Below are positions 1-37,838 of a stretch of DNA of 38,127 bases, in pieces (the first letter of the stretch is position 1; each line of letters starts with the position of its first letter). Both the position numbers and the translations under genes were made by a program. This DNA is from Candidatus Uhrbacteria bacterium (GTDB taxonomy: Bacteria > Patescibacteriota > Patescibacteriia > UBA9934), in the NCBI GenBank assembly GCA_030688135.1, contig JAUYIW010000022.1:1-38127 (forward strand), given 5' to 3'. The notes below the pieces were generated by a model, which saw nothing but the letters and a program-made list of their open reading frames with translations, had not been told where the DNA came from and ran no database searches.

Positions 1-38
1 GATTAACTCTGATTAACTTAAACTTATCTTTTGGAGAG

Positions 39-86
39 ATCAAAAAACATGTTTTAGTCCGATCGGACTAAAACATGTTTTTTGAT
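39..86. repeat. Perfect 48-bp palindrome (core GTCCGATCGGAC) just downstream of the PaaX/Cas2-like gene
   Basis: ATCAAAAAACATGTTTTAGTCCGA|TCGGACTAAAACATGTTTTTTGAT is its own reverse complement. Confidence 0.95.
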
Positions 87-88
87 TC

Positions 89-625
89 CTAACGGATTGC
101 AAGTGCCCTGTACACAAGAATGTAATCCTCGGCCTTTATAAGTTTTATTAAATCACGTAACTGGAATATAACATCTCTTTCACCTTCCCAGACGCTTTTT
201 TGTATCATCCGAAAGTCAGATTTCTTAAGAAGTTCTCGAAAACTTGACCTGACTCGACGAATATCTTCAGGAACATCGAATACCACAATACAAACCTCGC
301 CCTCAGGTAACATCGCTTCGGTAGTGAATATCTCAGTCTTTAAAGCAGACTCGTATCCCGCATCGGTCAATCGATACAGTATTTTATTGCCCTCAAATTT
401 TAGCTCAATTAACTTTTGCTTCTCTAGCTCCCTTAACTTTCTACGTTCTCCTTGCTCCTCGAACCGCCTTCTATCGTGCGCTATCTCTGCTCTTGGGATA
501 GTTAAATATGGCCTGACTCTATAAGAGCGCATACCCGATTCAAAAATACTTCCCGCTGTGTCGGCTAGTGAAAGTAGGATTTTCTTAGTAGCGTTTGAGA
601 TGGGCTTCGCATTATGATCTTTCAT
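89..625 (-). CDS. PaaX-family protein (winged-helix region plus Cas2/VapD-like ferredoxin-fold domain), stand-alone
   Basis: YRLTDAG wHTH wing, then CIVVFDVPEDIRRVRSSFRELLKKSDFRMIQKSVW, typical of the PaaX central/Cas2-like domain; no cas1 or CRISPR array in the window. Confidence 0.8.
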   Translation of the reverse strand: MKDHNAKPISNATKKILLSLADTAGSIFESGMRSYRVRPYLTIPRAEIAHDRRRFEEQGERRKLRELEKQKLIELKFEGNKILYRLTDAGYESALKTEIFTTEAMLPEGEVCIVVFDVPEDIRRVRSSFRELLKKSDFRMIQKSVWEGERDVIFQLRDLIKLIKAEDYILVYRALAIR

Positions 626-658
626 AATGAACAGATTAATATATTTACAATTAAGTAT

Positions 659-691
659 ACATGATTTGATCCGATCGGACTAAAACATGTT
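659..691. repeat. Imperfect palindrome of the GTCCGATCGGAC family, upstream of the PaaX-like gene
   Basis: ACATGATTTGATCCGA|TCGGACTAAAACATGTT; right arm matches the 39-86 palindrome. Confidence 0.9.
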
Positions 692-751
692 CATTGCAAA
701 GATTGAAACTTTATTTCTTGGTCTGCTTTAAAAGAATGATTTTAAACAAAT

Positions 752-794
752 AAAAACCCTGCAGTAGATCGGCCGATGCCGATGCACTACAGGG
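752..794 (-). terminator. Intrinsic terminator of ORF 829..1374
   Basis: Minus strand CCCTGTAGTGCATCGGCATCGGCCGATCTACTGCAGGG hairpin followed by TTTTT. Confidence 0.7.
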
Positions 795-828
795 CTACGC
801 CACGACGTAAATCGCGGAAGGTAGGGCG

Positions 829-1374
829 CTATGCGCCTGGGGTAAGTTCTCTGGTCTCTGTCAGTGTCTTTGAACTCTGATCCGGCGGGTTCCAGCCAAA
901 GCGAATCTTCAGAATCCGCATATGCATTTGCTGGGTAAAGATGAGACGCTCTTTCCTAGCGGCGCAGTCACTGCGAACGGCGTCAAGGTCAATGTCAAGC
1001 TCCTCATACACCAGTGCAGGAAGCTTGCCGTAAGGATCGTCCTCATTGAACAGAACACGCTCGATTACAAAAATTTCATTCGCATCTTCGAGCAATTCCT
1101 TCAATCCCTCTTGCTTCAAAAACTCAGCGTATGCGCGTCGCTCAGGATCTCGCCAACGTCTGATCATTGCGATTCCACTAACGACGATAAACAAGGCATT
1201 CATAGCCATGGCGGAAACAGCCAGATAGAAAGCTGTCGAATCCGACTCCCTAGAGGTCACGCAACCTAGGGTCAGCAAACCGAACACGGTAGCGCCAGAG
1301 ATGAACAGAAAGATTCCATTTCCCATGGTCGATCGACAACGAACATCATCCTCATTAAAGTACGTTATTTCCAT
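829..1374 (-). CDS. Hypothetical membrane protein (two N-terminal TM segments)
   Basis: 181-aa ORF, two hydrophobic stretches, GGGAG SD, upstream TTGACT-17-TAATGT (1433..1405), downstream terminator. Confidence 0.7.
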   Translation of the reverse strand: MEITYFNEDDVRCRSTMGNGIFLFISGATVFGLLTLGCVTSRESDSTAFYLAVSAMAMNALFIVVSGIAMIRRWRDPERRAYAEFLKQEGLKELLEDANEIFVIERVLFNEDDPYGKLPALVYEELDIDLDAVRSDCAARKERLIFTQQMHMRILKIRFGWNPPDQSSKTLTETRELTPGA

Positions 1375-1574
1375 GGTCTCTCCCGATGTTATAGATCTAG
1401 TAAGACATTATCGCTTATGTGGCGAAAAGTCAACAATAAACTAGCCAAATTTATAGGGATTAGGTACAATGTTTTTGAAACTAAATATCAAGGTGGAAGA
1501 AGTGAAATAAGTGAATAAGTTAATTTATCAGCTTTTCACGTTTATCATTTTTTTCACCTTTATAACTTTGTAAT

Positions 1575-2036
1575 ATGGATCAGCATTATGTAAGCGACGA
1601 AGGACTCCAGACTTTAAAAGATGAGGTTGAGAATAGAAAAACAACCCTTCGACGCGAGATAGCGGAAAAAATCAGCATCGCGAAAGATCAAGGTGACCTT
1701 TCAGAGAATTTTGAATATCAAGATGCAAAAGATCAACAAGCAGAAAATGAAACCAGAATTCTGTATCTTGAAGAACTTATAAAAAGTGCGGTTGTAGTTG
1801 AGAGAAGGGAAGGCGAAAGCACGATTAACGTTGGATCAAAATTTATAGTCGAAACAGCAGATGGTGGAACAAAGGAATTTGAACTTGTGGGAGCAACAGA
1901 GACCGATCCTCTCTCAGGAAAAATTAGCAATGAATCACCGCTTGGAAATAAATTTATTGGATCGTCCATTGGTGACACTATCAAAATGGAAACGCCTGGT
2001 GGGGCAATGACGTATAAAATTATTTCAATCGAGTAA
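1575..2036 (+). CDS. greA: Transcription elongation factor GreA
   Basis: GDLSENFEY and ISNESPLG motifs. Confidence 0.97.
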   Translation: MDQHYVSDEGLQTLKDEVENRKTTLRREIAEKISIAKDQGDLSENFEYQDAKDQQAENETRILYLEELIKSAVVVERREGESTINVGSKFIVETADGGTKEFELVGATETDPLSGKISNESPLGNKFIGSSIGDTIKMETPGGAMTYKIISIE

Positions 2037-2065
2037 ATGCAAGTTATAAGTTAAGAGACTAAATT

Positions 2066-3550
2066 ATGATCCCAGAGGAAATAGCAAGAAGAGAGCGGCT
2101 AAAATTAATTAGAGACGCTGGCATTGATCCATACCCTGCAGATTCGGGAAGAACACATTTAATACATGAGGTTCTTTTAAAATTTGATGATCTTGAAACT
2201 TCGGCTGATCCGGTCACTATAGCGGGACGAATGCGATCAAAACGAAAGCACGGTGGAGTTACATTTATAACACTCGAGGACGCAAGTGGCCGAATGCAGG
2301 TTGTTTTACATAGAGACTCTATTGGAGCTGAAGAATACCAAGCATTTCATGATCGCTCAGACGTTGGAGATTTTTTTGATTTTACAGGCCCTGTTTTTAA
2401 AACTCAAAAAGGAGAACAGTCAATAAATACAGTAAGCTACAAAATACTTACAAAAAGTCTATTGCCGTTGCCTGAAAAATGGCATGGCTTAACCGACACC
2501 GAAAAGCGCTACAGAAAGCGTTATCTTGATTTTATTGCCAATCCGGAAGCTATTGTTTTTGCAAAAGCCCGTGCGAATATGGTTCGAGCTATTCGAACAT
2601 TCTTGGAAGATGAAGGTTTTATGGAGGTTGAAACTCCAATTTTGCAGCCAATTCCGGGTGGAGCAAATGCAAAACCGTTTGTAACACATCACAATTCACT
2701 TCATGCTGATTTTTACCTTCGAATCGCACCGGAGCTTTACCTAAAACGATTGCTCGTTGGTGGATTTGAAAAAGTTTTCGAATTTGCAAGATGCTTCCGA
2801 AACGAAGGTATTAGCCCTCAGCATAATCCGGAATTTACTCAGGTTGAAACATATTGGGCATATGCCACCATCGAACAGCTCACCGATCACCTTGAGCGAA
2901 TGTTTGTGACTGCGCTAAAAGCTGTTACAGGCGGAAATAAGCTTATGATCGATGGCAAGGAATTTACAATCAATATTCCATTACCGCGTCACACTTTTCA
3001 TGATGTTGTACAAAAAGAAAGTGGTATAGATCTTGATAACTTTACAGATGAAGCCTCGCTTAGAACAGAAATATCAAACCGGAATATTAATACCAAGGAT
3101 GTTGTAGGATACGGAGATTTAATCGATCACCTATATAAAAAGCTTGTTCGACCAAAACTTATTGAACCGCAGTTTGTTATTGACTATCCGTCTGCAATGA
3201 AACCTCTCGCTAAACGAAGAGAAGGTGGCCAGTATAGCGCTAGCTCACAATTGCTTATAAATGGCTCAGAGGTTCTAAATAGTTTCAACGAGCTAAACGA
3301 TCCGCTCGAACAAGAAGAGCGATTCCAAGAACAGGATGCACTGCGAGAGCGTGGAAGCGACGAAGCTCAACACGCTGATTACGATTACGTTACAGCATTA
3401 AAGCACGGCATGCCTCCTGCGGCAGGCTATGGAATTGGGATCGATCGACTTGCAATGTTGCTCGCCGGAGTGCAAAATCTAAAAGAAGTAATTCTTTTCC
3501 CAACGCTAAAACCAGTTGAAGATGAAGAAACTAATGATGACTCCGAGTAA
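2066..3550 (+). CDS. lysS: Lysine--tRNA ligase (class II)
   Basis: OB fold, YLRIAPELYLKRL, FRNEG..HNPEF, GMPPAAGYGIGIDRL. Confidence 0.98.
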   Translation: MIPEEIARRERLKLIRDAGIDPYPADSGRTHLIHEVLLKFDDLETSADPVTIAGRMRSKRKHGGVTFITLEDASGRMQVVLHRDSIGAEEYQAFHDRSDVGDFFDFTGPVFKTQKGEQSINTVSYKILTKSLLPLPEKWHGLTDTEKRYRKRYLDFIANPEAIVFAKARANMVRAIRTFLEDEGFMEVETPILQPIPGGANAKPFVTHHNSLHADFYLRIAPELYLKRLLVGGFEKVFEFARCFRNEGISPQHNPEFTQVETYWAYATIEQLTDHLERMFVTALKAVTGGNKLMIDGKEFTINIPLPRHTFHDVVQKESGIDLDNFTDEASLRTEISNRNINTKDVVGYGDLIDHLYKKLVRPKLIEPQFVIDYPSAMKPLAKRREGGQYSASSQLLINGSEVLNSFNELNDPLEQEERFQEQDALRERGSDEAQHADYDYVTALKHGMPPAAGYGIGIDRLAMLLAGVQNLKEVILFPTLKPVEDEETNDDSE

Positions 3551-3554
3551 TAAT

Positions 3555-3956
3555 ATGACGCGTGTTTTAGTATTTGGAACATTTGATCATTTGCACCCTG
3601 GGCATGAGCATTTTTTAAAAGCTGCACAGGCTCTTGGAGATGAATTGATAGCTTGCCTAAGTCCTGATAAGATCGTCTTAAAGTTAAAGGACAGGGAAGT
3701 CATGAATAGTTATTCAAAAAGGAAAAAAGCCTTGGAAAGCGCAGGATTCTGTGATAAAGCTGTACAAGGAGACTCGAGTCTTGGAGGATATCAAATTATT
3801 AAGAAAATCAAGCCTGATATTATAGCGCTAGGATACGATCAGAAGGCTTTAAAGGCCGATTTAAAGCGTTGGATGGCCGAAAACGAACAAAGTATCGTGC
3901 TGAAGACAATCAGTGCATATAAGCCCAAAATCTATAAATCAAGTCTATTAAAATAG
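3555..3956 (+). CDS. Cytidylyltransferase-family protein (archaeal-type FAD synthase RibL-like)
   Basis: VLVFGTFDHLHPGH (HxGH) and PDIIALGYDQ; start moved to ATG 3555 just after the lysS stop. Confidence 0.8.
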   Translation: MTRVLVFGTFDHLHPGHEHFLKAAQALGDELIACLSPDKIVLKLKDREVMNSYSKRKKALESAGFCDKAVQGDSSLGGYQIIKKIKPDIIALGYDQKALKADLKRWMAENEQSIVLKTISAYKPKIYKSSLLK

Positions 3957-6632: not shown

Positions 6633-6659
6633 CAATCCGTACATCGGTAGGAACCTTGC
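6633..6659 (+). repeat. Dispersed ATCTGTA/ATCGGTAGG repeat copy
   Basis: CAATCCGTACATCGGTAGGAACCTTGC, 25/27 identical to 19614-19640. Confidence 0.8.
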
Positions 6660-7513: not shown

Positions 7514-7525
7514 ATTAACAAGGGA

Positions 7526-7562
7526 CCTACCGATGTACAGATAGTTACCGATATACAGATTG
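7526..7562 (-). repeat. Dispersed ATCTGTA/ATCGGTAGG repeat copy (inverted)
   Basis: Reverse complement CAATCTGTATATCGGTAACTATCTGTACATCGGTAGG closely matches 36003-36039. Confidence 0.8.
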
Positions 7563-12349: not shown

Positions 12350-12493
12350 AGTACATTATTTATTATCAAGAAACTGAATTTATTGCTAGGTACGAATGTT
12401 TATTGTCTGGAAGTTCGAAAGTCTTAAAGTCGGAAAGTCAGTACTAAATACTGGGAACTTTCGGTTGATAACTCTGTTTGCTTGTGTGGCACA

Positions 12494-12509
12494 TTTAGTC
12501 CGATCGGAC
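12494..12509. repeat. Core-only copy of the GTCCGATCGGAC palindrome
   Basis: TTTAGTCCGATCGGAC in the intergenic region upstream of gltX. Confidence 0.8.
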
Positions 12510-12538
12510 ACTTTTTGACACACTTGGTTAGATTAAAA

Positions 12539-13915: not shown

Positions 13916-15817
13916 ATGTCCAATTTCATCACGTTCGTATTCCTGCTGTTGGCCATAGGTTGCGAAGTCGAGGAAACCAAGGTCGGCGAGAAGTCTGACG
14001 AACCGATCCCTTGTGACGGAACGGCCACTAACTGGCCAGCCGAAGATATAATGCACGCGCTCTATGTTTACGAGGATGGTTCTGCATTCATGTGGAGCAT
14101 CTACAACGTAGTGCTCGATCGCAAGTCATCGAACTGCGTTCGTACCGACGGCGACTACAAAGGGCTTACAGTTCCATGGAGCTGTATTGAACCAGTTGCT
14201 GGCGAACTGTTCGCCGACGGCAAGTGCCCTGCACGCAAGTGCATGTTTAATGTTTCGAACTCTGGTCCTTGCCCCGAAGCATATCTCGAGGACACTGGAG
14301 AAACCGGTGAAATCGAAACTCAGCCCGAAGCAAAACCAAGGACAGTTCGAAAGAGCCGGCCTGCAAAGGCAAAGGCTCCGACGGTAGAGGAAAAAGACAA
14401 GCAGATCTCACAGCTGGCAGTCGTTCACAACGCTCAACTTGAGCTGATTATTGAATCCGAATCCGAATCCGGATACAAAGTCGAGATGGAGTTCATTGGC
14501 AAACCAGAGCCCGAGCCTGATCTCGAGCTTGAACCCATCGCTCAGCCGGTTATCGAGGATGTAGAAACTCCAAAACTGCAAGCGAGCGTCCCTGATGCCG
14601 CTCCTGACATCAATCAGGAACCTACGGTTCATATGACAGAGCCTGTCGTGCAACCTGCGTCAGTAGGGATAGACATCGCTCAACTCAAGAAGCATAAAAC
14701 TGATATCCCGATTGCCAAAATCGAGCAAACCGTGCCAGAAGATAAGAACCAAAAAAAGGTGCTTTCTGTAAATAGCGACGGGAGCACGACGGTTCAGTAC
14801 GTTGACCGCGAGCCGGCTAAGCCAGCAAAGCAGGTTACGAAACCTGAACTAGAGCTTGTAGTGGCAGATCTAGAACCTCCGAAATCAAGCGTTCAACCAC
14901 TCGGACCAGTAGAAATACAGGCCGAAGCCAATGCAATCCGCAAGGCAACGCGCGAACAGCTTGAAGACGGCGACCTGGCGCCAATTGGCGACACGTACCA
15001 AACAATGCGAGTCGTAACTAGCGTCGATTCGGAAGTCATGGTCGTTCTTCCACCTAGAGGATCTTTGGACTTTCCAGTCGAAGGGCCAGGTACAGTGCTC
15101 CTTGAGGCGAGAATTCTCTACGAAAGTAGCGCAAGCGAAACAACGGAGGGAATTATCATAGGAACACACAAGGGAGTGTACAGAAACTCTCTCGAGTTCC
15201 GCAAAGCGCAGGAAGCAAATGCGATTATTGAGGGTAGTACACAGGTGCCATCATTGACCGCGACTGGAAAATTCGAGGTCAGGGAGGACGACAAGTTCCT
15301 CAATCTGTTGAATCCTTCCGCCGAAGGACCATGCCTGATTCGCCTGCATCTCATCATGAGTACTCCACTCGAAGGTGCGGATAGAGGCCCGCAGTTCCGT
15401 ACACCGAACTACGCTCAAATGGAACCAGCGAAGGGAAAAATGATAGTTGCGCCAGAACCAAACTGGCAAGACGTGCAGAGTGGCATGCACAGAAGTCACG
15501 ACTACCTAGTCAAGCACGTTGATTCGCTCGTGCAAAACACACGGGCTGATCTGGACATGTGCTACCTGACAGGTATGACCGAGGCTCCTGGACTCGAAGG
15601 TCGTATTGTAGTGAAGATCGTACTAGATACTGAAGGCAACTCCGAAGTATCGATCCCCTACTCCAATATGGGTGGTTTGGTAGGTTTCCAAACCTGTCTT
15701 TCTTTCACGTTTGAGACAATAGATTATACGGATGCAAACGGTGTACCCTACGAGGACTTCGTTGCCTACGTACCGGTGGACTTTACCGCCGAGACGTCTC
15801 CGGGATTTTTCCGGTAG
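13916..15817 (+). CDS. Putative lipoprotein with Cys-rich N-domain, Pro/Glu-rich linker and C-terminal AgmX/PglI-like (TonB-C-like) domain
   Basis: LLLAIGC lipobox; C-terminal DLDMCY...PGLEGRIVVKIVLDTEG...CL pattern. Confidence 0.65.
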   Translation: MSNFITFVFLLLAIGCEVEETKVGEKSDEPIPCDGTATNWPAEDIMHALYVYEDGSAFMWSIYNVVLDRKSSNCVRTDGDYKGLTVPWSCIEPVAGELFADGKCPARKCMFNVSNSGPCPEAYLEDTGETGEIETQPEAKPRTVRKSRPAKAKAPTVEEKDKQISQLAVVHNAQLELIIESESESGYKVEMEFIGKPEPEPDLELEPIAQPVIEDVETPKLQASVPDAAPDINQEPTVHMTEPVVQPASVGIDIAQLKKHKTDIPIAKIEQTVPEDKNQKKVLSVNSDGSTTVQYVDREPAKPAKQVTKPELELVVADLEPPKSSVQPLGPVEIQAEANAIRKATREQLEDGDLAPIGDTYQTMRVVTSVDSEVMVVLPPRGSLDFPVEGPGTVLLEARILYESSASETTEGIIIGTHKGVYRNSLEFRKAQEANAIIEGSTQVPSLTATGKFEVREDDKFLNLLNPSAEGPCLIRLHLIMSTPLEGADRGPQFRTPNYAQMEPAKGKMIVAPEPNWQDVQSGMHRSHDYLVKHVDSLVQNTRADLDMCYLTGMTEAPGLEGRIVVKIVLDTEGNSEVSIPYSNMGGLVGFQTCLSFTFETIDYTDANGVPYEDFVAYVPVDFTAETSPGFFR

Positions 15818-19378: not shown

Positions 19379-19525
19379 GTTTATTATGCATCACGAATGT
19401 TTATTATCGATTAACAATGTTTATTGTAAAACGCAGATGTTTATTATAATATCACTCCAATAAAACGAGCCGACAGTCAATAACCAATCGCTTACCGCCA
19501 ATAAACGAAGTCGCCAGCAATAAAC
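19379..19525. repeat. Phased 20-bp array: four GTTTATT then four inverted CAATAA copies
   Basis: GTTTATT at 19379, 19399, 19419, 19439; CAATAA at 19458, 19478, 19499, 19518. Confidence 0.75.
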
Positions 19526-19613: not shown

Positions 19614-19640
19614 CAATCTGTAGATCGGTAGGAACCTTGC
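19614..19640 (+). repeat. Dispersed ATCTGTA/ATCGGTAGG repeat copy
   Basis: CAATCTGTAGATCGGTAGGAACCTTGC, matches 6633-6659. Confidence 0.8.
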
Positions 19641-30836: not shown

Positions 30837-30933
30837 GTCAGCGAATCGATCTCCGAACAGACACATTGGTCTGTCCCTACACGAAAACTGACTTGTCCTT
30901 AACCCCCGGACTAGGGCTCTCTCCTGTAATTGG

Positions 30934-31219
30934 GAAGGTTCGTCTGGATGGACTCTGTTCGTTGCGACCCTGTCGACCTGCGGCCGCGTTCATCTGTCGG
31001 CTGAGGGTTCGTTCAGGCCTCGAGGGTTCATCCAACGGTTTGTTCGTTGGCCAACTGACGACTGGCTTTGGCCGTTCGTCTGGCGGACGTGGGTTCATTC
31101 GTGGTGCGAAGGTTCGTCTGGATGGACTCTGTTCGTTGCGACCCTGTCGACCTGCGGCCGCGTTCATCTGACGACTGAGGGTTCGTTCAGGCCTCGAAGG
31201 TTCATCAAACGGTTTGTTC
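30934..31219. repeat. 112-bp direct repeat, 174-bp offset, 4 mismatches
   Basis: 30934-31045 versus 31108-31219. Confidence 0.95.
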
Positions 31220-35981: not shown

Positions 35982-36057
35982 CAACGAAATCTACCAGTGT
36001 ACTAATCTGTATATCTGTAACTATCTGTACGTCAGTAGGTACCTGGTAAATCGAACT

Positions 36058-36117
36058 ATGAAGATCGTTTTCTTTGGCACACCGGAATTCTCAGTAAACT
36101 TCCTCGAGGCATCGCAC
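36058..36117 (+). pseudogene. Diverged duplicate of the first 20 codons of fmt
   Basis: MKIVFFGTPEFSVNFLEASH versus MKIVFFGTPEFSVNFLKALH; 9 nt differences, 7 synonymous. Confidence 0.85.
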
Positions 36118-36128
36118 ATTTCCCCTAT

Positions 36129-36167
36129 CCATCCTGAGGAGCTCAGCTTATCTGCGACGAAGGATCT
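36129..36167 (+). repeat. CCATCCTGAG...GAAGGATCT hairpin repeat copy
   Basis: Lies between the fmt fragment and intact fmt; similar to 9262-9298. Confidence 0.8.
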
Positions 36168-36175
36168 TTCGTAAT

Positions 36176-37129
36176 ATGAAAATAGTATTTTTCGGTACAC
36201 CGGAATTTTCAGTAAACTTCCTCAAGGCATTGCACGCCGACGAGGATATTTTAGTATCTGCAGTTGTGTGTCAGCCTGACAAAGCCGTAGGACGAAAACA
36301 GATTTTGACTGCACCACCTACAAAAGTTTTTGCACTACAAAATAATATTGATGTTATCCAACCAGATGACTTACGTTCAAGCGTTCAAACTGTTCAAACG
36401 TTAAAATCAATTGGAGCCGATGCATTTATTGTAGTTGCATACGGCAAAATTATTCCTGACGAAATTTTACAAATACCCAGACTTCGCACATTAAACGTCC
36501 ATCCTTCCCTTTTGCCAAAGTATCGCGGACCTTCACCAATGCAAAGCGCAATTTCTGCTGGAGAAACCGAAACAGGTGTTTCAATAATGATACTAGACGC
36601 TAAAATGGATCATGGACCAATACTTGCTCAAGCAGTGATTAATCTTGAAGCCTCTGAAACCATTGAAACTCTTGAAACGAAAGTAGTAGATGTTGGCGCT
36701 CCGCTACTCATTGATGCATTAAAAAAATACGCAACCGGACAGCTCGAAGCCAAAGATCAGGATCACGATAAAGCAACGATTTGTAAATTACTATCGCGCG
36801 AAGATGGCGTGATTGATTGGAGAGAATCAGCCGAAGTAATTGAACGTAAAATTCGCGCCTACCAACCTTGGCCTGGAACTTCAACACTGTGGAACGATAA
36901 GTCGCTTAAAATTCATAGAGCGTGTATAGCCCGTGCTCATGATGAGTTGGAAGAAATTCCTCTCAATCTTAAACCCGGCCAAGTTAAAATCGTAAATCAT
37001 AAACTCTATATCGGCACAGGTAAAGAAGCGCTTGAAGTTCTCGAGCTTCAACTTGAAAGTAAACAAAAAATGAAATCAGAGGCCTTCGTAGCCGGCAATT
37101 CCGATATAAACGATATAATGCTCGATTAA
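36176..37129 (+). CDS. fmt: Methionyl-tRNA formyltransferase
   Basis: FFGTPEF, VVAYGKI, NVHPSLLPKYRGPSP, MDHGPI. Confidence 0.97.
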   Translation: MKIVFFGTPEFSVNFLKALHADEDILVSAVVCQPDKAVGRKQILTAPPTKVFALQNNIDVIQPDDLRSSVQTVQTLKSIGADAFIVVAYGKIIPDEILQIPRLRTLNVHPSLLPKYRGPSPMQSAISAGETETGVSIMILDAKMDHGPILAQAVINLEASETIETLETKVVDVGAPLLIDALKKYATGQLEAKDQDHDKATICKLLSREDGVIDWRESAEVIERKIRAYQPWPGTSTLWNDKSLKIHRACIARAHDELEEIPLNLKPGQVKIVNHKLYIGTGKEALEVLELQLESKQKMKSEAFVAGNSDINDIMLD

Positions 37130-37154: not shown

Positions 37155-37289
37155 AAAATACATCTATTGGTCCGATCGGACCAATAGATGTATTTTAGTA
37201 TTTTCAATATTTCGCTAAAATTAGCATAAGAATACGGCTAGCTTAAATTTCACGAAACATGTATTGGTCCGATCGGACTAAAACATGTT
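37155..37289. repeat. Pair of GTCCGATCGGAC-core palindromes
   Basis: Perfect 42-bp palindrome at 37155-37196 and imperfect AACATGTATTGGTCCGA|TCGGACTAAAACATGTT at 37256-37289. Confidence 0.95.
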
Positions 37290-37337
37290 GATGCTAAATC
37301 AAGGTCAAAATACAAAATCCACTGCTTTTATATGTAT

Positions 37338-37393
37338 TTCACAACAATTATTTCACAACAATTAATTCACAACAATTAATTCACAACAATTAA
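37338..37393 (+). repeat. Four 14-bp tandem repeats TTCACAACAATTAA abutting a promoter
   Basis: Units at 37338, 37352, 37366, 37380; TTGACA at 37396, TATTGT at 37419 (17-bp spacer). Confidence 0.92.
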
Positions 37394-37451: not shown

Positions 37452-37838
37452 ATGAAATCTTTGCAAGAAGGCTTGATTGGACTCGGTCTAGTGTCAGGCC
37501 AAGCTCGAGCCGAACATGCCGTGAAAAGCATGGAGGAAGATGATGCACTGAGCGCTCGAAATGGTAGAGCAGGAGCTAGCGCACTGTCACTCATTGACTG
37601 CAAAAACGTCCGAGAATTCCGCCACGTAGCAAAACGCCTCCTCCTTCGTCGCTCTGCGGGAATTAGGGAGCTTATAACTACCGCATACGAGCTTCCCGAT
37701 GACGCATCGCGGAAACGCCTAATATGGCAGCTCCAACAGGTCTCACGAGGCCTGATGATGATCGATGAAGAAAAAAGGGATCAATTTCTCAACCGTGCAC
37801 TACGCGGGTCAAACCCGATGTTTAACACGGACTTCTGA
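37452..37838 (+). CDS. Hypothetical protein
   Basis: 128 aa, AAGGAG SD, own promoter and terminator. Confidence 0.7.
   Translation: MKSLQEGLIGLGLVSGQARAEHAVKSMEEDDALSARNGRAGASALSLIDCKNVREFRHVAKRLLLRRSAGIRELITTAYELPDDASRKRLIWQLQQVSRGLMMIDEEKRDQFLNRALRGSNPMFNTDF

Follow-up and report, generated by a model that had tools for sequence, protein, structure and literature searches.

What is the function of a long palindrome that stands on both sides of a small, solitary gene, and is the protein encoded between the two copies the one that recognizes them? These questions are raised by one end of a 38,127-nucleotide (nt) stretch of DNA from a Candidatus Uhrbacteria bacterium (GenBank assembly GCA_030688135.1, contig JAUYIW010000022.1), which we refer to in its full length as the window. 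There, an open reading frame (ORF) on the minus strand (89..625, here called paralog A) encodes a protein of 178 aa that combines a winged helix with a Cas2-like domain. The source genome, G000 in our numbering, amounts to 1.04 Mb in 82 contigs with 42% G+C and is 92% complete; the window is the whole of its contig C14. A first-pass annotation of the letters alone had proposed that the protein and the palindromes around its gene form a cognate pair, and the comparative data presented below strongly support this proposal: the association is real, specific and phylum-wide. As to its function, the reading that we prefer, and to which we give about even chances, is that the protein would be a dimeric DNA binder of PaaX type that has no effector domain and uses the upstream one of the two sites to repress its own gene.

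The downstream site (39..86; neither this nor any other palindrome is assigned a strand) is indeed a perfect palindrome of 48 bp, as had been claimed. Its two arms, 39-62 and 63-86, are 24 nt each and 100% complementary; the centre is CGATCG, 18 of 18 pairs are formed, a run of six A precedes the element and a run of six T follows it. It begins only 2 nt past the stop codon of paralog A. The upstream site had been described as an imperfect copy at 659-691. Such a copy is present, but its extent is 657..696: it is 87% complementary to positions 41-78 across 38 nt, its own dyad keeps 13 of 18 pairs, and its centre lies 49 nt before the ATG of the gene. The right arm of this site is canonical and agrees with the downstream site at 14 of 15 positions; the left arm is the deviating one, with 10 of 15 against its partner arm. 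The beginning of contig C73 repeats window 1-95 in reverse complement, with a single mismatch, and the downstream site sits between two convergent genes, paralog A and a PBP2-like gene of this neighbouring contig. Independent contigs from a public run also end inside the core, with pieces that cover 1-68 and 57-3000. The palindrome is found at a contig edge because it broke the assembly; its sequence was nevertheless read across in full. No cassette-free form was seen in the public-run contigs, which break at the palindrome.

The core of the two sites, GTCCGATCGGAC, occurs five times in the window if at most one mismatch is allowed (at 57, 669, 12498, 37170 and 37267). Only 0.04 occurrences were expected, and none of 100 shuffled sequences got to five. 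All five lie between ORFs, so that the recurrence reported for the last three positions, always intergenic, stands. Across the 1.04-Mb genome the pattern is found at 11 places, as against 0 for the reversed control. Moreover, a tblastn search revealed two further paralogs in G000, and each of the three genes is bracketed by its own class of palindrome. Paralog A (C14:89-625) has its sites at 62 and 674, with arms ACATGTTTTAGTC and the centre CGATCG; paralog B (C59:15025-15567) has them at 15002 and 15596, with arms GTGTGTCATATTTTGTC and again CGATCG; paralog C (C47:about 3173-3715) has them at 3150 and 3742, with arms CTCGTTTATAGTC and the centre CGTACG. The proteins A and B are 43% identical, A and C 31%, B and C 33%. 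Each class has in addition 3-5 lone intergenic copies, which brings the sites to 5-7 per class. Those of class A are at window 37175 and 37272 and at C43:10767 and 10866; those of class B at window 12503, C15:19782 and C38:12660; and those of class C at C25:6619, C56:5571, C82:2927, C74:4525 and C30:about 240. Among the 26 loop-free palindromes of the genome that score at least 10, there are 12 with a CGATCG or CGTACG centre that form part of the system described here, one of them being the C73 duplicate of 39-86, and several palindromes are perfect across 42-50 bp.

Is this arrangement peculiar to a single genome? The protein has matches in 36 of 61 related genomes (an order-level sample, 0-8 matches each), and a profile of the family has them in 71 of 301 genomes sampled across the phylum, with up to 11 in one genome; the host genomes measure about 1-1.5 Mb. 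A word-index search for homologues gave nine proteins, and an exhaustive profile search was used in its place: among 1.84 billion representatives it found 5,536 clusters with E <=0.001, of which 3,249 reach E <=1e-10. In public databases the members are named 'hypothetical', 'PaaX-like central Cas2-like domain-containing protein' or 'CRISPR-associated endonuclease Cas2', and all of them come from Patescibacteria. In the papers reached by our literature searches, neither the family nor its palindromes are described.

For a comparison of the flanks we have employed 58 loci from 58 other Patescibacteria genomes, made up of 30 loci from relatives, one per genome, and 28 from other families of the phylum. 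A strict site, defined as a centre CG(AT/GC/TA)CG with at least 11 of 18 pairs, was sought in the first 30. The upstream flank has it in 20 loci and the downstream flank in 23; 15 loci have it in both flanks and 28 in one flank at least, whereas all of the remaining sequence of the same loci, 69,416 nt, contains it once. In most loci the centre of the downstream site falls 3-32 nt past the stop codon. We then scored the sequence shared between the upstream and the downstream flank, with a mark of at least 14, since mismatched flank pairs used as a control reach at most 13. This mark is passed by 16 of the 30 relatives' loci and by 22 of the 28 from other families, where CGCTATAGCG and CAGCTG also serve as centres; 38 of the 58 loci therefore exceed the control maximum. 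The homologues, in short, do have palindromes at their flanks, as the first-pass annotation would require.

It could still be argued that the protein and the palindromes have nothing to do with each other, the latter being ordinary terminators that act in both directions, or generic repeats, which stand next to the gene by accident. The site at 39-86, between convergent genes and with its A- and T-runs, has the look of a terminator, and a terminator scan listed the lone palindrome at 37155-37196 as terminator-like (39-86 was not listed despite its six T, and the consensus promoter and terminator scans are uninformative here). However, the upstream copies are not where a terminator of the gene would be, the neighbouring gene upstream (829..1374) has a GC-rich hairpin terminator of its own at about 745-790, the two sides of each paralog carry the class peculiar to it, and the pattern extends to other families of the phylum. 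This explanation is hardly credible; with strict sites beside the gene in 28 of 30 loci against a single background occurrence, and with 22 of 28 loci sharing their flanks in other families, chance or a plain terminator is excluded. Searches of PHROGs and of phage records gave no match.

In the sequence of paralog A two Pfam domains, PaaX_M (3.7e-10) and CRISPR_Cas2 (1.1e-7), both match residues 112-174. PF20803, the central Cas2-like domain, scores 40.2 bits against a cut-off of 24, the NCBIfam cas2 model (TIGR01573) scores 32.5 bits against 24.5, and the full PaaX model (TIGR02277) gives 23.2 bits against 264.55. PaaX_C has no match in the protein, which stops at residue 178, right after the Cas2-like domain. 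A structure model based on 30 homologues (pLDDT 83.7) has a winged helix, with helices at 11-28 and 50-69 and the wing at 73-86, followed by a beta-alpha-beta-beta-alpha-beta domain. The best Foldseek match of this model is E. coli PaaX (8a39), after which come many Cas2 chains and VapD. The 30-homologue profile also matches the ArsR/CzrA winged-helix repressors over positions 8-99 (E 0.002), and, by sequence, the solved structure nearest to the C-terminal domain is the Cas2-type RNase 3exc. In the alignment of the 30 homologues D117, P119, R126, S144 and W146 are invariant, and E120 and R130 nearly so; the Cas2-type residues of the family (D117, E120, R126, R130, S144-W146) align with those of the Cas2 RNase SSO8090. 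The protein has no match to the Y1/HUH domain (PF01797). Cas1 (PF01867) has no match in its own 92%-complete genome, in which CRISPR arrays were not searched for. A prediction of the two-copy complex of paralog A scored 0.36, with a mark of 0.42, and we have used it neither way.

With regard to the site, the symmetry is at the level of DNA. Among the mismatched pairs there is no bias towards G·U on the sense strand (21 versus 15 upstream, 18 versus 16 downstream), and most mismatches are non-wobble. The symmetry is best at pairs 1-3, 9 and 13-14 and worst at pairs 5 and 7, with the mismatches clustered at 4-8. Similarly, in the class B copies the outer TG(A/C)CAC and the centre are constant and the stretch between them varies. 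Where a flanking pair is recognisable (30 of the 58 loci), the two members are direct in 10 cases, inverted in 4 and too symmetric to be assigned in 16. The missing G·U bias, the symmetry profile, the constancy within class B and the pair orientations together point to a dyad on double-stranded DNA that would be read by a dimer.

These same data bear on the possibility that control is exerted on RNA, on which the palindromes would form hairpins at both ends, 5' and 3', of the mRNA of the gene itself and also of other transcripts. As a ribonuclease or stability factor, the Cas2-like domain would then bind or cleave them, and the winged helix would play a minor role. Both flanking palindromes may be co-transcribed with the gene, the downstream centre in most loci following closely on the stop codon; it is the downstream copies that have the better symmetry (15.0 versus 13.35 of 18 pairs, p = 0.005); 39-86 and 37155-37196 carry terminator-like T-runs; and the nearest solved relative of the C-terminal domain is an RNase. 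Nevertheless, we think such a mechanism very unlikely. Neither the indifference to sense-strand G·U nor the position of the mismatches, beside the would-be loop while pairs 9 and 13-14 are the best kept, is what a stem would require, and the latter suits half-sites better. In addition, the sites occur in both orientations and between convergent genes, the N-terminal domain is of a DNA-binding type, and an Rfam search gave no family match at the palindromes.

The dyad without strand bias, the winged helix of ArsR/PaaX type and the long palindromic operator of PaaX thus favour binding to double-stranded DNA together with autoregulation. PaaX is the repressor of phenylacetate catabolism. A review describes it as made up of a winged helix, then a motif for dimerisation and a C-terminal domain, names TGATTC-N27-GAATCA as its site and has it repress its own promoter by steric hindrance (PMC9493321); a long palindrome is therefore a known target of this architecture. 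Our protein would correspond to the first two thirds of such a repressor, a winged helix-turn-helix and then a Cas2-like domain that presumably makes the dimer. The dimer would occupy a dyad-symmetric site of 32-48 bp, its winged helices reading half-sites some 9-14 bp from the centre and a conserved portion of the protein touching the CG-NN-CG centre itself. A putative -10-like hexamer, TATACT (654..659, minus strand), lies directly past the upstream palindrome of paralog A and 28 nt ahead of the ATG, and TATACT likewise follows the upstream palindrome of paralog C. The upstream site would then abut or overlap the gene's own promoter, and the protein would turn off its own transcription. The remaining copies of each class would be further binding sites. 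The downstream copy might be a second binding site, a bidirectional transcription stop, or both, with the gene insulated on its two sides.

A good deal weighs against so simple a scheme of self-repression. The consensus promoter scan listed no promoter at 626-760. The downstream site is the one with the better symmetry, as given above. Nor can it be the operator of the following gene, since it is present where that gene is a convergent one: of the 24 loci in which a downstream neighbour was called, 9 have it in convergent orientation, and the site is kept in most of the 9. Lone copies between convergent genes are also known, two of the four class-2 copies in the complete genome G042 and two of those in G001, the sister species. 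An asymmetric direct repeat of 38 nt flanks one of the G042 paralogs, and its six copies are 100% identical over 25-38 nt, which exceeds what an operator needs. The Cas2-type residues (FDIPE, two Arg, SVW) are, in a profile alignment, not found in E. coli PaaX, and a mere role in dimerisation does not explain why they are invariant here.

The sister species adds further difficulties. Where G000 has the paralog A cassette, G001 shares the neighbours (PBP2-like gene, membrane protein, greA and lysS) and is without the paralog A gene; this empty site holds one palindrome, centred on CCGATCGG, which is one of the two G001 copies just mentioned. In both species paralog C lies in synteny with uvrC on one side and uvrA on the other, at 69% identity. 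The centre of its class, GTCCGTACGGAC, is kept between the two, and the arms differ in the same way in every copy of each genome, a concerted change of a kind that regulons rarely show. One lone class C copy is inherited, a point in favour of the repressor; it lies 208 nt (G000) or 210 nt (G001) ahead of a release-factor gene that we take, by its N-terminal sequence, to be prfB. Of 30 family genomes only these 2 have a site before prfB, the remaining 28 being without one (upstream sequence is shorter than 50 nt in 2 of the 30 loci), so that any regulon must be short-lived. A conserved regulon is rejected on this ground.

Four of these facts, namely the downstream copy, the concerted arms, the lone palindrome at the gene-less sister locus and the Cas2-type residues, misfit a plain repressor, and they keep alive a second reading, that of a system resembling the repetitive extragenic palindromes (REPs) and their associated tyrosine transposases (RAYTs), on a different fold. 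An active, metal-dependent Cas2-like nuclease may cut or nick the palindrome, perhaps at its CG-NN-CG centre in a hairpin or cruciform, and so copy, homogenise or recombine the sites; the lone copies would be its products, and the gene might be gained or lost at the sites. We hold this to be rather unlikely. The more specific proposal of an independently evolved palindrome-and-guardian system analogous to REP/RAYT, in which a winged helix joined to a catalytically competent Cas2-like domain would cut at CG-NN-CG and drive copying, arm exchange, homogenisation and the gain or loss of its own gene, seems to us unlikely.

The genome itself offers the true RAYT-like genes for comparison. PF01797 (Y1 transposase, RAYT/IS200-like) has eight matches in G000, which correspond to seven ORFs (C38:18044-18898, C4:38999-39829 and one each on C23, C51, C19, C28 and C63). 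Five of the seven are flanked on both sides by a short GC-rich hairpin family of their own, for example CCAACCCCNGGGGTTGG, with 8-19 copies genome-wide; one such copy is at about window 19054. The layout of our family mirrors theirs, with 5-7 sites per class in place of 8-19 hairpins. None of the hairpins of the Y1 ORFs has a CGATCG or CGTACG centre, and the refuting case named in the first-pass annotation, a RAYT flanked by the same core, was thus not found among them.

What else would speak for cutting and copying? Besides the class C arms that changed in concert, the inherited prfB site included, some arms are closer to those of other sites than to their own partner (C43:10767, window 37272 and all three class B lone copies); the sister species has kept the neighbours and one palindrome where the paralog A gene is missing; several palindromes are perfect over 42-50 bp; and the invariant or nearly invariant residues align with the Cas2 RNase SSO8090 and are missing from E. 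coli PaaX. On the other hand, G000 has no near-identical second copy of any cassette and its paralogs are 31-43% identical, from which it follows that the gene itself has not moved recently; the uvrC/uvrA position of paralog C is stable in two species; the two doublets are direct repeats, 97-99 nt apart, and not inverted pairs of the REPIN type; no target duplication was seen; and the strand bias that single-strand hairpin substrates would entail was not found. The hybrid-looking arms can also be read as variation of an uncontacted spacer between conserved half-sites. Furthermore, the nuclease activity of Cas2 is weak and is dispensable in Cas1-Cas2 integration. Between the two readings offered by the first-pass annotation, RAYT-like spread or operator sites, the data do not decide; duplex binding with autoregulation is favoured.

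The three lone sites of the window deserve a description of their own. The one at 12484..12523, GTGTGGCA...TGACACAC around GTCCGATCGGAC, had been taken for another copy of the core that brackets paralog A. The core is indeed shared, but the arms are of class B, the class that brackets paralog B on C59, and not those of paralog A. This site is 17 nt past a WecG-type glycosyltransferase gene and about 150 nt ahead of gltX, and the same spacer of G001 is without it. The palindrome at 37155..37196, perfect over 42 bp and of class A type, with arms that are a variant (ACATCTATTGG), lies 26 nt past the stop codon of fmt and has a T-rich tail after it. At 97 nt from this palindrome there follows another class A site (37256..37289), whose left arm is like that of its neighbour and whose right arm is canonical for the class; it lies about 180 nt ahead of a gene (37452..37838) for a 128-aa protein with no family match. 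By our own tally, the types of intergenic region that hold lone copies are about those expected of any intergenic element and do not discriminate between the readings.

In two spacers a class C palindrome is found 133-135 nt from a hairpin of the type belonging to the Y1 ORF on C19 (C74:4525/4658 and C25:6619/6754); these spacers, which precede the presumed prfB and xseA, share nothing else. The lone class C copies also precede what we take to be xseA, a GIY-YIG gene and an exonuclease-ribonucleotide reductase operon. Likewise, genes that we assume to be those of repair proteins adjoin several homologues: recG in loci L032, L033, L035 and L037, radA in L033 and L037, rarA in L019, L022 and G042:428125, and uvrA/uvrC beside paralog C on C47. 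Such neighbours could hint at a regulon of DNA repair, although the loci are few and related. The neighbours of paralog A are the PBP2-like gene, the membrane protein, greA and lysS.

Repeats of other kinds are also present. Directly ahead of the -35 hexamer TTGACA of the gene 37452..37838, window 37335-37390 consists of a 14-nt unit, TATTTCACAACAAT, in four tandem copies. Other short tandem motifs occur near other sites at 1-28 (GATTAAC), 12400-12450 (GAAAGTC), 19379-19447 (a 20-nt unit in three copies) and C59:15620-15760. The first 67 nt of fmt, start codon included, are duplicated 118 nt upstream with 84% identity (36051-36117 and 36169-36235), which leaves a short ORF with the same N-terminus. 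A motif of some 27-48 nt, CAATCYGTASATCGGTAGGAACCTTGC, stands ahead of several genes (6633-6659, 19614-19640, 36021-36047) and is inverted at 7514-7561; the stretch just before fmt (about 36130-36175), close to this motif, matches some ten places in the sister species. Elsewhere in the window a 115-nt unit is present twice, 174 nt apart and 96% alike (30931-31045 and 31105-31219). Finally, the genome has a further repeated palindrome, CCTGCCTGCCGGCAGGCAGG, found with at most one mismatch at seven places (C4:29563, C15:21315, C17:3576, C25:189, C41:16494, C57:3834 and 6732) and linked to no gene.

Patescibacteria have tiny genomes with few recognised regulators. Should the proteins of this family be repressors, the phylum would have in them one of its main families of regulators. 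Since the candidate binding site stands at both flanks of each gene, the specificity could be tested directly in vitro for bacteria that are uncultured. If they cut or copy their sites as well, they would represent a new kind of repeat-maintenance system. And if a relative of Cas2 does recognise palindromic direct repeats outside CRISPR, this would bear on how Cas2 came to work on repeats. There is also a practical consequence. The cas2 model passes its cut-off on these proteins and public entries bear the Cas2 name, so that CRISPR counts in the phylum are inflated; Patescibacteria have been reported to be poor in CRISPR. In this family of tiny bacteria of groundwater type, often labelled Cas2 in databases, the palindrome is most likely the binding site of the protein.

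How does this pairing of protein and palindrome compare with systems already described? It shares with PaaX (PF07848 + PF20803 + PF08223; TIGR02277) the order of winged helix and Cas2-like central domain. What the review cited above (PMC9493321) reports for PaaX, a long palindromic site whose half-sites stand wide apart and repression of the own promoter, is what we propose here. The family differs in lacking the C-terminal PaaX_C domain, with TIGR02277 far under its cut-off, in having no paa genes beside paralog A, in keeping the Cas2-type residues that E. coli PaaX is without, and in the bracketing of the gene by sites on both sides, with up to 8 matches per genome in the order-level sample and up to 11 in that of the phylum, in genomes of about 1-1.5 Mb.

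With Cas2 (PF09827, TIGR01573) the family has in common the ferredoxin-type fold and an Asp that ends the first strand, followed by SVF/SVW; unlike Cas2, the protein has a winged helix fused to this domain and measures about double the length, Cas1 was not found in the 92%-complete genome, and the repeats flank the gene itself and form no array. As in REP/RAYT (Y1/HUH transposase, PF01797), cognate palindromes stand on both sides of the gene, every paralog has a palindrome family of its own, further copies are dispersed between genes, and protein and repeat change together between species. The fold, however, is a different one with no HUH/Y1 motif, the palindromes are long loop-free dyads where REPs are short GC-rich hairpins, the copies number 5-7 per class, the doublets have direct and not inverted orientation, and the Cas2-like catalysis is putative.

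A last parallel is provided by the dif-like modules of Acinetobacter plasmids, in which genes are flanked by Xer sites of about 28-32 bp with two exchangeable arms and a 6-bp centre. There too, short genes are bounded by two-arm sites with a 6-bp centre. Those modules, however, carry diverse cargo and depend on a recombinase of the host, whereas the family described here has one cargo, a site that changes with it, and a centre that is itself palindromic.

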